Shown: positions 55,803-64,000, counted from the stretch's first letter. The stretch: 64,000 bases of DNA from Candidatus Dormiibacterota bacterium (GCA_027319585.1 DAHVMY010000004.1:1427-65426); one strand, 5' to 3'. A program made the numbers and translations. The notes: generated by a model not told the origin, from the letters alone.

Positions 55803-56615
55803 ATGGACCAGCGGGTCGGATATCAGGGGGAACCCGGGGCCAACTCCGACGAGGCGGCGCGCCAGCTCTTCCCCGGCGCCGACACCGTGGGTCTGCCGAC
55901 CTTCGCCGCGGTCTTCACAGCTGTGGCCAGGGGGGATTTGCAGTTTGCGGTCCTGCCCGTGGAGAACAGCCGCGCGGGGGTCGTGCAGGAGGTTAGCGAT
56001 CAGCTCTGGGCCCACCCGGAGCTGACTGTGGTCAGCGAACGAGTGGCTCCCATCCGTCACCATCTGCTCGCCGCCGACCACCAGCCGGTGGAGCGGGCCC
56101 TTTCCCACCCCCAGGCCCTGGCCCAGTGTGCGAACTGGTTAAGCGCCCACGGGATAGCGGGCATCCCGCATCCGGACACGGCTGGCGCGGCCCGCCAGGT
56201 GGCCCAGAGCAGGGTGGACGGGGAGGGAGCGATCGCATCACTCACCGCCGCCCGACTGTACGGGCTGGTGGTGGTGGCGGAGGACATCGCCGACGAGCCG
56301 TCCAACCAGACCCGTTTCGTGGTGGTCACCGCCCGCGCCGCTACCGGAGGGCCGATTCCTGGGAGGGCCAAGGTGTCAATGGGCCTGATCGCCCCCCATC
56401 GCCCCGGGGGGCTGGTCCGGGTGCTGGAGGTCTTCGCTGACCTGGAGCTGAACCTGACCCGGTTGGATGCCCGCCCCATACCGGACCTGCCCTTTCACTA
56501 CCGCTTCTACCTGGATGCCGAGCTCGAGCAGGCGGGCCAGGTGGACCTGCTGCTGCCCCGGTTGGCCTCCGTCAGCCAGGAGCTTCGGCTCTTCGGGATC
56601 TATCCCCTAACCTGA
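55803..56615 (+). CDS. pheA: Prephenate dehydratase
   Basis: [29 protein letters not shown] and C-terminal ACT domain; CACAAT 6 nt before the ATG. Confidence 0.92.
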
Positions 56616-58324
56616 GCGGGCGAGAGCTCCTCGGCGAGGACCGCGCCGCGGGCGGAACTCCCGACCAGCTGGGCGTATCTGGCGAAGACCCCGCGCCGCT
56701 TCGGCACTTCCGGGGCGCGCCAGAGCCGACGTCGGCGCTCCCACTCCGCCTCCGGAACAGCGGCGGATACGGTCCGAGCGTCGACATCGATGGTGATCTG
56801 ATCGCCATCGCGCACCAGCGCGATCGGCCCCCCCACGGCGGCCTCGGGAGCGATGTGACCGATCATCAGCCCATGGGTTGCGCCCGAGAAGCGGCCGTCG
56901 GTCAGCAGGGCCACGCTGTCCCCGAGGCCCTGGCCAACCAGCGCCCCGGTCACGCCCAGCATCTCGCGCATGCCCGGGCCGCCGCGCGGACCCTCGTAGC
57001 GGATCACCACCACGTCGCCGGGGACGATTGACCTGGCGGACACCGCCGCCATCGCCGCCTCCTCGGAGTCGAAGACCCGCGCGGGCCCGGTGTGCTGGCG
57101 CCAGGTGTGCCCCGCCACCTTGACCACCGAGCCCTCCGGGGCGAGCTGCCCGTGGAGAATGGCCATGCCTCCGCTTGCGCTGAGCGCCTCCCCGACCCGC
57201 CGAACCACGTCCTGGCCATCGGTCTCGGGCCAGGTGTCGGCAGCGGCGGCCGCCTGGTCTTCCAGGCTGGAGCCGGTGCAGGTCTGGGCCGAGCCCGCCA
57301 CCGAGCCGTGCTCCAGCAACCGGCGCACCAGCAGCGCCACACCGCCGGCACGTGTCAGGTCGACGGCGTTGTAGCGGCCGCCGGGACGGAGGTCGGCCAG
57401 CCAGGGGGTGCGTTGACTCACGGCGTCGAAATCGTCGATCTGCAGCGGGATTCCGGCCTCGGTCGCGATTGCCAGCAGATGCAGCACCGCATTGGTCGAG
57501 CCCCCACTTGCCATCACCCCCGCGATCGCGTTCAGGAACGACTCCCGCGAGAGGTAGGTGCTGGGCCGCCGACCCCTGGCGACCATCTCCACCACCAAGC
57601 GGCCCACCTCGGCGGCGGCTTCGGGCTTGCCGGGATCGGTCGCTGGGATGCCCCCCAGCTGAAGTGGCGAAATGCCCAGCAGTTCGATGGCCATGGCCAT
57701 GGTGTTGGCGGTGAACTGGCCCCCGCAGGCGCCGGCCCCGGGGCAGGCGACGTCCTCCAACTGCCGGAGCTCGTCATCGCTGATGCGCCCGGCCTCGGCG
57801 GCCCCGATCGCCTCAAACACGTCGATCACCGTCACGTCCCGGCCCCGGAAGCGGCCGGGCTGAATGGAGCCGCCGTAGAGCAGGCAGCCGGGGAGGTCCA
57901 GCCGACACAGGGCCATGGCCGCGCCGGGGATGGTCTTGTCGCAGCCGACCAGCGCCACCACGCCATCCAGAAGATGGCCCCGGCAGACGAGCTCGATCGA
58001 GTCGGCGATGACCTCCCGGCTGATCAAGGACGCCTTCATGCCCTGGGTGCCCATGGCCACCCCGTCGGAGACCGCGATGGTGTTGAACTCCATCGGCGTG
58101 CCGCCGGCTTCCCGGATCCCGCGCTTGACGTGCTCCGCCAGCCGCCGCAGACCGAGGTTGCACGGCATGGTCTCGATCCAGGTGTTGGCGACCCCGATCA
58201 GGGGGCGGGACAGGTCGGAGTCCGTATAGCCGGCTCCCTTGAGCATCGCCCGAGCGGCAGCCCGCTCGCGGCCGACCACCAGGGCGCGACTCGGAAGCGC
58301 GTTCGCCTGCGTGGCTGGCTTCAT
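56600..58324 (-). CDS. ilvD: Dihydroxy-acid dehydratase
   Basis: [30 protein letters not shown] and DGRFSG motifs. Confidence 0.96.
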
Positions 58325-58448: not shown

Positions 58449-58477
58449 TTGACAGCGCTGCCAGGGGCTGGTATACC
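58449..58477 (+). promoter_or_regulatory. Sigma70-type promoter of the ilv-leu operon
   Basis: TTGACA-N17-TATACC with an extended -10 TG. Confidence 0.85.
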
Positions 58478-58508
58478 TGTCGGCAACTTGAACGCGCACC
58501 CCGCCGCC

Positions 58509-58571
58509 ATGCTGACTCGTGAGAGCTCCTTCGCTCTAGTAGGCCTAATTTCAGGAGGGCTGGTCAGCTAA
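58509..58571 (+). CDS. ilv-leu attenuator leader peptide (MLTRESSFALVGLISGGLVS)
   Basis: 20 codons with 4 Leu, 2 Val and 1 Ile, including AT-rich CTA GTA GGC CTA ATT; overlaps the antiterminator. Confidence 0.75.
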   Translation: MLTRESSFALVGLISGGLVS

Positions 58572-58596
58572 AGGCTGCGCATCCGCACTTAGCTGC

Positions 58597-58629
58597 AAGC
58601 CCCCCGGTCACCACCGGGGGGCTTTTTTT
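58597..58629 (+). terminator. Attenuator intrinsic terminator
   Basis: AAGCCCCCCGG-TCACCA-CCGGGGGGCTT followed by a T-run. Confidence 0.92.
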
Positions 58630-58685
58630 GTTTTCCGAACCCATCTCCATCGCTGTTCGACCGAGCAACCACCAGGAGGCCAATC

Positions 58686-58874
58686 ATGTCCGCACCTCGC
58701 GATATCCCCGGCACCGAAGGCCCGTCTCCGTTCGCGTTCCCGCCTGACATCGAGCTCGACGAGGCGGCGCGCAACTGGGTGCGCCACCACCACGAACACG
58801 CCCGCCCGATGCGGCAGATGGCCGCCGACGCGGCGGTGACGTCCGCCATCGGCAGGGCCTACGGTCAGGGCTGA
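58686..58874 (+). CDS. Unknown 62-aa protein, first gene after the attenuator
   Basis: AGGAGG RBS 6 nt before the ATG; GC-typical codons; HHHEH motif; stop 10 nt before ilvB. Confidence 0.7.
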   Translation: MSAPRDIPGTEGPSPFAFPPDIELDEAARNWVRHHHEHARPMRQMAADAAVTSAIGRAYGQG

Positions 58875-58884
58875 GAGTCCGGCG

Positions 58885-60615
58885 ATGAGCGCAACCGCCC
58901 TGCTTGGCTTCGAAGACCGACCCGTCGAGCCCGCCCGCGCTAGCCGCTGCGGCGCGGAGATCCTTCTGCAGGCACTGGAAGCCGAGGGGGTCGAGGTCAT
59001 CTTCGGGCTGCCGGGAGGCGCCAACCTGCCGATCTACCAGCACCTGCCCAGCTCACCGATCCGGCACATCCTGGTTCGCCACGAGCAGGGGGCGGCGCAC
59101 ATGGCCGACGGCTACGCTCGTACCAGCGGCCGGGTGGGAGTCTGTCTGGCGACCTCGGGACCCGGGGCCCTCAACCTGGTGACCGGGTTGGCGACCGCGC
59201 ACTTCGACTCCGTGCCCGTGGTGGCGATCACGGGGCAGGTCGCCACCGCCACGATCGGCACCGACGCCTTCCAGGAGTCGGACGTCATCGGCTCGACCAT
59301 GTCGGTCACCAAGCACAGCTACCAGGTGCAGGACGCGCGCGACCTCTACGCGGTGGTCCGCGAAGCCTTCCAGGTGGCGCGCACCGGCAGACCCGGGGCG
59401 GTCTTGATCGACGTGCCCAAGGACGTGCAGCAACAGGTGGTCGAGGGCGACTCGGCGGAGATCACCCGGCTTCGACCCCACCGGGAGCCTCCTCCTCCCG
59501 CCCCGGAGCTGCTCGACCGGGCGGCCCAGTGGCTGGCGGGGGCCCACCGGCCCGTGATTCTGGCGGGCAGGGGGGTAGCGATCTCCCGAGCCGAGGCGGC
59601 GCTGCTCGAGCTCGCCCAGCAGATCGACGCACCTGTGGGGACCACGCTGCTCGGCACCGGGGTCTTCCCGGCCGACCATCCCCTCGCCCTGGGGCTGGTC
59701 GGGTTCATGGGGACCGGGTACTGCAATCTGGCGGTGAGCAACTGCGATTCCCTCCTGATGGTGGGCATGCGCGCGGACGACCGGGTCACCTGCCGGCTGG
59801 ATCAGTTCGCGCCACGCGCGCGCCACATCATCCACGTGAACATCGACCCGGCCGAGCTGGGCAAGACCGTCGCCGCAGACTGCCAGATCGCCGCCGACGC
59901 AACCTGGACCATTCGCGCCCTGGCTGGGAGAGTGCCGCCGCGCCGGCACCCCCGATGGCGCGCCCAGATCCGGGCCTGGCGTGATCGCCACCCCTTGCGA
60001 TACCCGAACAACGGCAAGCTCCAGCCCCAGGAGGTCCTGGCCGCCTGCTACGCCCGCCGCCACCCGTCCGACGTCGTGGTGGCGGACGTCGGGCTGAACC
60101 AAATCTGGGCCGCCACGGCCTGGACCGGTGACCGGGCGGGCACCTTCCTCAACTCCGGTGGCGCGGGCACCATGGGCTTCGCCCTCCCGGCCGCGCTCGG
60201 GGCGCAGGCGGCCGCCCCCGACCGCAGGGTCTGGGCAATCTGCGGCGAGGGGGGCTTCGTCATGACCCTGCAGGAGCTGGCGACGGCCGTGGAGGCGCGG
60301 TTGCCGGTCAAGGTGGTGATCCTCAACAACGGCCAGCTCGGCATGGTGCGCCAGTTCCAGGACGACTTCTACGGCGGCATCCGCTCCGCGGTCGCCCATT
60401 CGGTCGTTCCCGACTTCCGGCTGTTGGCCTCCGCCTTCGGCTGCTTCAGCGCCACCGTGACCTGCAGCGGCGAGCTGGACGACGCCCTCGGCTCAGCGCT
60501 CGAACACCCGGGACCGGCGCTGGTCGAGTGCCGGATCGACCCCGAGGCCGGCGTGTACCCCATAGTCCCCTTCGGCAAAGGTCTTGCCGGTTTCGTGGAG
60601 TGCCCGGTCGGGTGA
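58885..60615 (+). CDS. ilvB: Acetolactate synthase large subunit
   Basis: FGLPGG, RHEQGA, TSGPGA, DVPKD, GTMGF and LNNGQLGMVRQ motifs. Confidence 0.95.
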   Translation: MSATALLGFEDRPVEPARASRCGAEILLQALEAEGVEVIFGLPGGANLPIYQHLPSSPIRHILVRHEQGAAHMADGYARTSGRVGVCLATSGPGALNLVTGLATAHFDSVPVVAITGQVATATIGTDAFQESDVIGSTMSVTKHSYQVQDARDLYAVVREAFQVARTGRPGAVLIDVPKDVQQQVVEGDSAEITRLRPHREPPPPAPELLDRAAQWLAGAHRPVILAGRGVAISRAEAALLELAQQIDAPVGTTLLGTGVFPADHPLALGLVGFMGTGYCNLAVSNCDSLLMVGMRADDRVTCRLDQFAPRARHIIHVNIDPAELGKTVAADCQIAADATWTIRALAGRVPPRRHPRWRAQIRAWRDRHPLRYPNNGKLQPQEVLAACYARRHPSDVVVADVGLNQIWAATAWTGDRAGTFLNSGGAGTMGFALPAALGAQAAAPDRRVWAICGEGGFVMTLQELATAVEARLPVKVVILNNGQLGMVRQFQDDFYGGIRSAVAHSVVPDFRLLASAFGCFSATVTCSGELDDALGSALEHPGPALVECRIDPEAGVYPIVPFGKGLAGFVECPVG

Positions 60616-61186
60616 CTTCATGCAATTCGGACCAGTGCCGTCCCACCTCCTTGGCGGCGAACCCCAGCCAGCCGTGGCGGCTGGTCATGGTCCAGGCCGA
60701 GGACCGCAGCGGGATCCTGCAGCGGGTCACCAACTGCCTTGCCCGCCGCGGCTTCCAGCTGTTCAGCTGCACGGTTGGCCAGGGTCCGACGGACGGCCTG
60801 CTCACTCTCTGGCTGCGGGTCGGGACCGGCCCGCAGCCAGTGGACCAGGTCACCAAGCAGCTCGCCAAGCTCATCGACGTGGTCAGCGTCGAGGACATGA
60901 CCGCGCGGGCGCCGGTGCAATGGACGACCGCGCTGGTGGAGATTCGGCGAAGTGGTGACGAGCACGACCTTGAGGCGGCGCTGAACCACCCCGGGGTCCA
61001 GGTCGTGCGCCATCTCGAGAGCTCGGTGCTGGCGGCGATCGGCGGCCCGCCGGAGCAGGTCGAGGAGATCCTGGCCCGCATTCGCCGGCTGCCGGTCATC
61101 GACTGGGTGGTGGGACGCCCGCTGGCGCTTGGGGAACACCGGGCGGTGGCGAGCGCCGCGCCGAGCAATCAAGTGATGAGTGGGAG

Positions 61187-61190
<4 letters not shown>
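60612..61190 (+). CDS. ilvN: Acetolactate synthase small regulatory subunit
   Basis: [10 protein letters not shown]...RRGF ACT domain and [11 protein letters not shown]; GTGA overlap with ilvB. Confidence 0.88.
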
Positions 61191-62253
<1,063 letters not shown>

Positions 62254-62257
<4 letters not shown>

Positions 62258-63492
62258 GCACCGACCGCGGCACCTCCGCCGGGCTCGACAACGCGTCGAG
62301 CCCGGCCATCGTGGATGTGGTCCAGTTCTTCGACACCACCCTGCGCGACGGCGAGCAGGCTCCGGGGGCGACCCTGCACCTGGAGGACAAGGTGGCGGTC
62401 GCGCATCAGCTGGCGCGGCTGCGCGTTGACGTGATAGAAGCCGGTTTCCCGGCCTCCTCGCCCGGGGACTTTGAGGCGGTCCAGCGGATCGCCAGAGAGG
62501 TGGAGGGGCCCGCGGTCACGGGTTTGGCCCGGGCCCATCGCGGGGACATACTCGCGGTCCACCAAGCGGTGCGGGACGCGCAAAGGCCGCTGATCCACGT
62601 CTTCATCGCGGTCTCGGACATCCACATCGAGAAGAAATTGGGGCTGGACCGCGCCGAGGTGCTGAGGCGGACCCACGACGCCGTGGCCTACGCCCGAGAT
62701 CTCTGTGCCGAGGTTCAGTTCTCGCCTGAGGATGCCGGCAGGGCCGACCGGGAGTTCCTGTGTCAGGTGGTCGAGACCGCGGTGGCGGCCGGCGCGTCGG
62801 TGGTCAACATCCCCGACACCACCGGTTATTGCCTGCCTGCGGAATTCGCCGAGCTGGTCACGACGGTGCGCCAGCAGGTGCGGGGCATGGAACAGGTGCT
62901 GGTCAGTGTGCACTGCCACGACGACCTGGGCCTGGCCACGGCCAACTCCCTGGCGGGGGTGGCCGCCGGCGCCCGCCGGGTGGAGGGGTGCGTCAACGGG
63001 CTGGGGGAGCGAGCGGGCAACGCGGCCTTGGAGGAGATCCTCATGGCACTCCGGGTGCGCCGGCCCGAGCTCCACCTGGCGGACAACCTGGTGGCTCAGG
63101 AGGTGGGTCCCACCAGCCGCCTGGTGTCCAAGCTGACCGGGATCCCGGTGCCTCCGAACAAGCCGGTGGTGGGCAGCAACGCCTTCGCGCACGCGTCCGG
63201 AGTCCATCAGCACGGGGTGCTCAAGGACCGCAGCACCTACGAGATCATGACCGCGGAGGAGGTGGGTGCAGGGGCGACCCAGATCGTGCTCACGGCCAGG
63301 TCCGGCCGCCATGCCCTCGTTCATCGCCTCGAACTGATCGGGCTCAGGGTGCCGGACAGCCAGATGCCCCGGGTATGGGCCCGCTTCCTGGAGGTGGCGG
63401 ACACCAGCAAGGAGGTGGGGGACGATGCTCTCTTGCGAATCGTGGGTGAGGTTGGCCACCTGAATCCGGAGTTGGGAGCGATCGCCGGGTGA
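62254..63492 (+). CDS. leuA: 2-isopropylmalate synthase, short form
   Basis: [30 protein letters not shown] and HASGVHQ motifs; ends at 412 aa. Confidence 0.9.
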
Positions 63493-64000
63493 GATCGCCC
63501 AGGCAACAGCTGCGGCTGGTGGTGCTGCCCGGGGATGGTGTTGGCCCCGAGGTCACCGCCGCCGCCCTGACGGTGCTGGAGGCGGTATCGGAGCACGCGG
63601 GAATCGAGCTGATCGTCAAGACCGAGGCGGTTGGCGGCCGCGCCATCGAGGTCTGCGGCGATCCCCTGCCCCAGACCACCCTGGCCGCGTGCCGGGCCGC
63701 CGATGCCGTCCTACTGGGCGCGGTTGGCGGACCCCGGTGGGACGGGGGAGCGGTCCGTCCCGAGGCCGGCCTGCTCGCCCTGCGGAGCGGACTCGGCGTC
63801 TTCGCGAACCTGCGCCCGGTGCGGTGCTGGCCCGGTGCCGAGGACAACAGTCCACTCCGCGAGGACATCGTCCGGGGGGCGGACATCGTGTTCATCCGCG
63901 AGCTCACCGGCGGAGCCTACTTCGGACGTCCCCATGGGATCGGCGGCCGACCTCCCCACCGGAGGGCGGTGGACACGACCGAGTACAGCGAAGGGGAGAT
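63489..64000 (+). CDS. leuB: 3-isopropylmalate dehydrogenase (runs off the window)
   Basis: LPGDGVGPEV, LLGAVGGP, FANLRP and RELTGG.YFG motifs; GTGA overlap with leuA. Confidence 0.95.
   Translation, partial: MRSPRQQLRLVVLPGDGVGPEVTAAALTVLEAVSEHAGIELIVKTEAVGGRAIEVCGDPLPQTTLAACRAADAVLLGAVGGPRWDGGAVRPEAGLLALRSGLGVFANLRPVRCWPGAEDNSPLREDIVRGADIVFIRELTGGAYFGRPHGIGGRPPHRRAVDTTEYSEGE

Follow-up and report, generated by a model that had tools for sequence, protein, structure and literature searches.

A probable leader-peptide attenuator upstream of the ilv-leu operon in Dormibacterota

The intergenic region ahead of the ilv-leu operon of a Dormibacterota bacterium holds an element that is very probably a classical ribosome-mediated (leader-peptide) transcription attenuator of sORF62-ilvB-ilvN-ilvC-leuA-leuB. 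We studied this element within a window of 64,000 nucleotides (the whole stretch of DNA that was analysed) and compared it with 24 distinct leaders of the same family, taken from the regions upstream of ilvB in relatives of the source genome; nearly all of the regions taken contained the element. The anatomy of the element, its conservation, the coding signature of its leader frame, its choice of rare codons and the covariation of its helices were all observed directly. An earlier note on this DNA had proposed ilv-leu attenuation here, and every feature that it named is present in the window at the position it gave, although the leader start that it had chosen gives way to another one, as described below.

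Locus, promoter and leader reading frame

The source genome is a 2.08-Mb MAG (86% complete, 69% GC) and the public genomes closest to it are titled Candidatus Dormibacterota or Dormibacteraeota. On the minus strand, ilvD (56600-58324) is divergent from the ilvB operon, and the attenuator lies within the 360 nt that separate ilvD from an ORF of 62 amino acids (sORF62; 58686-58874, plus strand, as are all features that follow). This ORF is the first cistron past the attenuator and is preceded by a Shine-Dalgarno (SD) sequence, AGGAGG, at 58674-58679. It is kept across the family with a motif DIELDEAGRNWV...AADAAVTxAIGxAYG, in fuller form [F/Y]PxDIELDEAGRNWV...RPLRQxAADAAVTxAIGxAYG, and gave no match in Pfam or NCBIfam. 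The genes that would be regulated, ilvB (58885-60615), ilvN, ilvC, leuA and leuB, span 58885-63998, with leuB running beyond the end of the window. All five are NCBIfam equivalogs (TIGR00118, TIGR00119, NF004017, NF002086 and TIGR00169, respectively), which assigns the genes 3' of the attenuator to the branched-chain amino acid (BCAA) pathway. LeuA (62254-63492) is just 412 amino acids long and aligns with positions 5-383 of an isopropylmalate synthase profile that has 516 positions; its C-terminal regulatory (leucine-feedback) domain appears to be missing. The leuA stop codon is overlapped by leuB.

The earlier note had described a consensus promoter, which holds in full for the -35 element and in part for the -10. 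The -35 hexamer TTGACA (58449-58454) is a perfect consensus and a 17-nt spacer separates it from the extended -10 element TGG TATACC (58469-58477), which matches the consensus at only four of six positions and carries C in place of the final T. The promoter was not called by a consensus scan because of this missing T, and we retained it because it is conserved among the family leaders. TTGAC[A/G/T] is present in all 24 of them and is paired with a -10 box across a 17-nt spacer in 23. [quoted passage not shown] A CA[C/T][C/T] motif stands directly 5' of the start codon in the family leaders and includes an invariant A, A58485 in the window, which is the 8th nucleotide past the -10 and lies 3 nt before the start codon. 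Transcription is predicted to begin near this nucleotide, about 8 nt past the -10.

The leader ORF (58488-58571) comprises 27 codons (TTG...AGC) followed by TAA and would encode the peptide M/L-NAHPAAMLTRESSFALVGLISGGLVS. The first 100 columns of the alignment of the family leaders are free of gaps, and in each of the 24 sequences a start codon is found exactly 27 codons ahead of the stop (TTG in 19, GTG in four and ATG in one), the stop being TAA in 13, TAG in 10 and TGA in one. Conservation of the leader ORF, which the earlier note had left to be checked, is therefore complete in both openness and length: frame 0 is open in all 24 leaders, with stops in the +1 frame of all 24 and in the +2 frame of eight. 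GC content at codon positions 1/2/3 is 0.71/0.43/0.88 over codons 2-16, compared with 0.73/0.51/0.86 in coding DNA of the genome, and becomes flat by position (0.72/0.61/0.72) in the 30 nt past the leader stop. For annotation, the attenuator adds an unannotated small ORF and accounts for the length of the ilvB leader.

This 27-codon frame from TTG 58488 replaces the 20-aa leader of the earlier note, which was read from the ATG at 58509-58511, codon 8 of the conserved frame. The ATG is the best start codon in the window and the 20-codon frame from it to TAA 58569-58571 is open, so that a shorter peptide could in principle arise from an internal, SD-less start behind a leader of about 25 nt. We consider such a start very unlikely. 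Codon 8 is no conserved start, being ATG in two, GTG in two and TTG in one of the 24 relatives (5/24 in total) and CAG in 11, CTG in six and CCG in two. It also sits in helix 1:2 (see below), and the seven codons upstream of it have a coding-type GC3 (0.85, calculated over codons 2-7). The upstream TTG, GTG or ATG is conserved in 24/24, and three of the leaders (L007, L010 and L016) have no other canonical in-frame start.

The lack of an SD sequence, which the earlier note had listed as a weakness, would be accounted for by the promoter-proximal TTG, GTG or ATG found 9-11 nt past the -10. A transcript that starts about 3 nt before the start codon would leave no room for an SD sequence, so that the leader ORF would be translated in a leaderless or nearly leaderless manner from the transcription start predicted here. 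In systems studied to date, UUG initiates leaderless translation poorly, and its presence at the start of 19 of the 24 leaders counts against the reading of the element as a leaderless attenuator. The conserved frames point to leaderless, mostly UUG-started translation in Dormibacterota.

Control codons and alternative RNA structures

Codons 17-21 of the leader ORF read CTA(Leu) GTA(Val) GGC CTA(Leu) ATT(Ile) at 58536-58550. The cluster of Leu, Val and Ile codons noticed earlier at this place is borne out by the comparison, since Leu-Val-x-Leu-Ile is nearly invariant in the 24 relatives. Codon 18 is GTA and codon 21 is ATT in every leader. Codon 17 encodes Leu in 23 of them (CTA 18, CTC 3, CTG 2) and Val (GTA) in the remaining one, codon 20 encodes Leu in 23 (CTA 15, CTT 5, CTC 2, CTG 1), and codon 19 is variable yet still specifies Leu, Val or Ile in 19. 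The control codons are some of the rarest that the genome has for these amino acids, with a usage of 1.2% (CTA, among the codons for Leu), 3.0% (GTA, among those for Val) and 6.9% (ATT, among those for Ile), and GC3 goes down to 0.32 over codons 17-22. A block that is sensed by the ribosome is expected to use rare codons and to vary at third positions in ways that keep Leu, and both were found: most of the variation in the Leu control codons falls on the third position (CTA/CTG/CTC/CTT), with one Val and one Pro as the exceptions. ARAGORN detected 41 tRNAs in the assembly including tRNA-Leu(UAG) and an unusual tRNA-Ile(UAU); tRNA-Val(UAC) and tRNA-Ile(GAU) were not found in this 86%-complete assembly and may lie in the missing 14%.

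The full leader folds with an energy of -60.4 kcal/mol (z = -2.8). Segment 1 (GCTGACT, 58511-58517) can pair with 58562-58568 to form a putative anti-antiterminator, helix 1:2, which is part of the minimum-energy fold. Its alignment columns 27-35/78-86 are 79.6% paired with four pairs changed on both sides, and column pair 33-80 is CG in 12 sequences, UA in seven and GC in one. RNAalifold, applied to the family alignment, failed to predict helix 1:2 by itself and independently gave three other structures: the terminator, a hairpin that we call Pa and a small CCU:AGG helix (58544-58546 with 58556-58558). Pa (AGAGC/GCTCT, 58522-58537) is formed by 58522-58526 with 58533-58537, lies within the ORF and ends at the first control codon. 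It is 93% paired, with pair 41-52 being AU in 12 sequences and GC in 10 and pair 42-51 GC in 12 and AU in nine. The CCU:AGG helix explains two further features of the alignment: C58544 and C58545 are invariant because they are paired in it, and the A of GGAGGG is kept because of its pairing there in the off state, even though it forms a mismatch in the antiterminator.

Segment 2 (GGAGGGCTGGTCAGCTAA, 58554-58571) holds the stop codon and has two alternative partners, segment 1 and segment 3 (TTAGCTGCAAGCCCCCC, 58589-58605), the latter being the 3' strand of the antiterminator, which overlaps the 5' arm of the terminator. In the antiterminator GGAGGGCT (58554-58561) pairs with AGCCCCCC (58598-58605) through seven of eight possible pairs and one A.C mismatch, around an inner stem of CAGCTAA (58565-58571) with TTAGCTG (58589-58595). 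The intrinsic terminator (58597-58629), placed there already by the earlier note, consists of a 12-bp stem (58597-58624; nine G-C pairs) followed by a T-tract (T7), and shuffled controls gave 0.5 terminators per region. It is conserved in the family: 93% of it is paired, and column pairs 115-142 and 116-141 covary. The off conformer as a whole (1:2, Pa and terminator) has 88.5% of its cells paired and 13 pairs changed on both sides. None of 500 shuffles was as good and slid registers reached only 32-55%, but the 24 sequences are kin and the shuffle controls thus overstate significance. The antiterminator is 80% paired across the 24 leaders, and six of its pairs have changed on both sides. A58598 (column 116) covaries both with its antiterminator partner (column 78) and with its terminator partner (column 141), the 78/116/141 triple being C-G-C in nine sequences and T-A-T in eight, and such three-way covariation is a hallmark of mutually exclusive helices. 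All three elements, the putative anti-antiterminator among them, have support from covariation, and the three-way column together with covariation in both conformers upholds the proposal that antiterminator and terminator exclude each other.

For the antiterminator, the transcript was folded as it is before the 3' arm of the terminator emerges. The 3' arm was withheld because at equilibrium, with the footprint blocked, the terminator always wins thermodynamically. An antiterminator was scored when at least 7 bases of segment 2 pair with the 5' arm of the terminator, and with the 3' arm withheld it was the minimum-energy fold in 24/24 sequences. In the window both antiterminator and terminator have an energy of -24.8 kcal/mol and so are of equal stability; over the 24 sequences the antiterminator averages -29.0, the terminator -25.9 and the 1:2 region -26.3 kcal/mol. 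When a stalled ribosome was modelled with its A site at codons 17-20 the window antiterminator persisted (-25.6 to -22.0 kcal/mol). A stall at the Ile codon covered the outer stem and reduced the antiterminator to -13.6 kcal/mol, leaving the inner stem, which still holds the foot of the terminator 5' arm, and a ribosome placed at the stop codon abolished the antiterminator (-2.9 kcal/mol). Folding of both conformers, suggested earlier as a check, thus gave two stable structures and an antiterminator that is blocked by a ribosome at the stop and not by stalls at codons 17-20. Only 3 nt lie between the end of the Ile codon and GGAGGG, and since a stall on Ile would cover the outer antiterminator stem, the model suggests that Ile sensing may be weaker than Leu or Val sensing.

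From these features we infer that the leader ORF is translated and that the element responds to BCAA supply. In the mechanism that we propose, transcription would start near A58485 and translation of the leader at UUG 58488, 3 nt later. As long as Leu-, Val- and Ile-tRNAs are charged the ribosome would reach UAA 58569-58571 and cover segment 2 (58554-58571), upon which the terminator (58597-58624) would fold and transcription would end at the U-tract. If one of these tRNAs were scarce, the ribosome would stall on the rare CUA-GUA-x-CUA-AUU codons (58536-58550) and unwind both helix 1:2 and the small CCU:AGG helix. Segment 2 would then stay free and pair with 58589-58605, at the foot of the terminator 5' arm, allowing RNA polymerase to read through into the operon. 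If there were no translation at all, helix 1:2 (58511-58517 with 58562-58568) would hold segment 2 and the terminator would form. The attenuator logic that had been proposed for ilv-leu agrees with what we find, namely a conserved ORF with rare codons, a stop codon in segment 2 and covarying 1:2, 2:3 and 3:4 helices.

Distribution of the leader and a paralogue upstream of gltB

A covariance model built from the family recognised 38 of the 44 family genomes as carriers of the element and gave weak matches only (24-40 bits) in the 300 other genomes of the phylum sample. These weak matches were left out and the leaders of distant Dormibacterota were taken by way of ilvB synteny instead. All 23 ilvB loci obtained in this way from other Dormibacterota(-like) families have a uORF of 22-32 codons with 6-9 Leu, Val or Ile residues within a 10-residue window. 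In 22 of the 23 the uORF starts 8-12 nt past a TANNNT box, and a T-run of at least four lies about 50-60 nt past its stop in 18. Judged by these features, other families of the phylum appear to have analogous, putatively leaderless BCAA-rich uORFs with terminators upstream of ilvB.

Two MAGs carry two full-score ilvB-type leaders each (113-135 bits) on separate contigs (C18 and C44 of G005; C71 and C87 of G343), which could reflect strain heterogeneity in the bins or true duplication. The family leader is also found in L032 and L033 (DATLTJ010000093 and DATKSI010000006), where IlvB is 71-74% identical to that of the window. In L039 (DATKQJ010000004) IlvB is 56% identical and a Dormibacterota-style BCAA-rich uORF with a terminator is found instead. 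The titles of these three contigs read 'Candidatus Acidiferrales bacterium' and 'Candidatus Micrarchaeaceae archaeon', and these taxonomic labels are probably wrong.

The earlier note had suggested that this lineage uses a leader peptide rather than a T-box, and our searches agree with it. The T-box covariance model (RF00230) gave no match in the region or in the whole assembly and the T-box signature GGGTGGTACCGCG is absent at the locus; the signature is instead present upstream of ilvB in L089 and L051, two loci of other lineages that the search for ilvB relatives had also brought up. Both L089 (Candidatus Limnocylindrales) and L051 (Candidatus Dormiibacterota) have a signature GGGTGGTACCGCGGG together with a terminator upstream of ilvB, and L089 has, in a position that mirrors that of sORF62, a small ORF of about 70 amino acids separating the T-box from ilvB. 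A cmscan of the region against Rfam 15 (E up to 10) brought no family near its gathering threshold and the matches were driven by the terminator, the best being PyrR (25.2 bits against a threshold of 54) and Phe_leader (19.3 bits against 55). The 15 matches listed at this E-value limit included no ilvB-named family, and Leu_leader and the other Rfam leader models, Phe_leader excepted, gave no match in the region.

A second, weaker match to the family model (30-70 bits) is present in about 20 of the family genomes. We fetched 21 copies (L141-L161, for instance L150 and L152; G002:C61:9475-9622), most of which are directly upstream of gltB, the gene for the large subunit of glutamate synthase. 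In 19 of the 21, gltB was recognised downstream by a CGVG motif or by a long ORF carrying the N-terminus of GltB. This paralogue retains the promoter, a TTG or GTG start, GGAGGG-N-GTC-AGC-TAG and the terminator, and 17 of the 21 copies have an open frame of 27 codons. It is without the Leu-Val-x-Leu-Ile block, has the C-terminus SASL[L/P]AGGPVS, a flat GC by codon position (0.66/0.63/0.69) and conserved rare codons of its own (CGA, AGG, GCA and CTA). In the source assembly, a MAG that is 86% complete, tblastn with the GltB N-terminus of a relative found no gltB. As the platform is shared but the BCAA block and the coding-type GC3 are absent from the gltB copy, neither feature of the ilvB leader is a by-product of that platform. 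Conversely CCUA and GGAGGG are common to both leaders and must be conserved for RNA-level reasons, so that part of the conservation is not BCAA-specific.

This shared part of the sequence bears on a translation-independent alternative, in which a protein or small ligand would bind single-stranded CUAGUAnnCCUAAUU...GGAGGG, thereby deciding which of antiterminator and terminator forms, and the open frame would be incidental. Such an attenuator would fit the very high nucleotide conservation (GTA, ATT, CC and GGG are invariant) and the presence of CCUA and GGAGGG in a paralogue that has no BCAA codon block. It could also draw on a look-alike ilvB leader of Streptomyces coelicolor, in which mutation of the candidate control codons left regulation unchanged (PMC1262725), a null result which means that anatomy alone is no proof of mechanism. 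The PyrR-like alignment points the same way, although at 25 bits it is weak against the 54-bit cut-off and stems mainly from the terminator, and no Rfam family reaches its threshold. We nevertheless regard a translation-independent mechanism as improbable. The start and the stop are kept while switching between synonymous signals, exactly 27 codons apart and with the frame open in 24/24, and GC3 is coding-like even in the poorly conserved N-terminal part. At the control block the rarest codons are chosen and, save for one Val and one Pro, Leu codons change at the third position only. In addition, other families have BCAA-rich uORFs of different sequence.

The strong promoter and strong terminator would also suit a gene for a trans-acting small RNA of about 145 nt, with read-through into ilvB as a side effect, and trans-acting small RNAs derived from attenuators are known, such as rnTrpL (PMC6614838). 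That this should be the main role of the unit seems to us extremely doubtful: the element is always directly upstream of ilvB (or of gltB in the case of the paralogue) in the same orientation, and any trans role would come on top of the cis function instead of taking its place. Ribosome-mediated attenuation remains our preferred reading of the ilvB leader. The two leader types lead us to speculate, with some reservation, that one modular, UUG-initiated and essentially leaderless platform was duplicated and re-coded, the copy with rare Leu, Val and Ile codons serving ilv-leu and the other serving gltB. The platform would consist of the promoter, a 27-codon ORF whose start is no more than about 3 nt from the RNA 5' end, the placement of its stop codon in segment 2 and the GGAGGG antiterminator/terminator. 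We hold this course of events to be somewhat less likely than not. If it were true, efficient 5'-terminal UUG initiation and an obligatory coupling of transcription and translation that begins with the first nucleotide would be integral to the amino-acid and nitrogen control of the phylum; the paralogue itself hints at reuse of the platform for nitrogen assimilation.

Comparison with known attenuators

The mechanism proposed here is an ordinary and known one. Its occurrence as ilv-leu attenuation in the uncultured soil phylum Dormibacterota would be new as far as we found, our literature search having returned no paper that ties Dormibacterota to attenuation. It would add a candidate phylum, known from metagenomes alone, to those that control ilvB by leader-peptide attenuation, and the fixed 27-codon ORF with its three-way covariation provides a clean comparative data set.

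The enterobacterial, trp-type leaders of ilvBN (ivbL), ilvGMEDA (ilvL) and leu (leuL) share with the Dormibacterota leader the four-segment 1:2/2:3/3:4 logic, with control codons just before segment 2 and the stop codon in or near it. The use of rare CUA codons for Leu is likewise common to leuL and the Dormibacterota leader. The enterobacterial leaders differ in having an SD-led ORF on a longer 5' UTR, whereas in Dormibacterota a single leader spans all three BCAAs and both the ilv and the leu genes. The T-box leaders of L089 and L051 occupy the same genomic position and share the terminator read-out and the class of signal, tRNA charging, but are of a kind that senses uncharged tRNA directly and without an ORF. 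The ilvB-OMG and 'ilvB' RNA motifs are again structured ilvB leaders with an in-frame BCAA-rich uORF and a terminator, and have been reinterpreted as uORF attenuators (PMC10272879). Across Actinobacteria, too, candidate leader peptides with terminators have been predicted for ilvB (PMC1262725).

By this comparison the closest known system is the ilvBNC attenuator of Corynebacterium glutamicum (IlvL; 'ilvB-II motif'), as described in Morbach et al. 2000, PMC10272879 and PMC11857589. In that system, mutations of the Val codons and of the start codon abolish control (PMC11857589 citing Morbach 2000; PMC10272879). Like the Dormibacterota element, it is found upstream of ilvBNC as one copy per genome, encodes a BCAA-rich leader peptide without a ribosome-binding site, and starts with AUG, GUG or UUG in different representatives. 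It forms three hairpins that act as anti-antiterminator, antiterminator and terminator with a U-tract, as is predicted for the Dormibacterota leader. Transcription there begins 1 nt from the start codon, compared with about 3 nt predicted for Dormibacterota. The two also differ: the C. glutamicum system belongs to the Actinomycetota and has a shorter peptide of 15-17 amino acids (MTIIRLVVVTARRLP), and we detected no similarity between the two leaders by sequence or by covariance model. The Dormibacterota leader is set apart by its fixed length of 27 codons, its mostly UUG starts and its Leu-Val-x-Leu-Ile block of rare codons, and the operon by the 62-aa ORF between the terminator and ilvB and by the inclusion of leuA and leuB. 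Attenuation by uORFs has been argued to be a common way of regulating ilvB (PMC10272879), and the Dormibacterota leader fits this view of a common solution.
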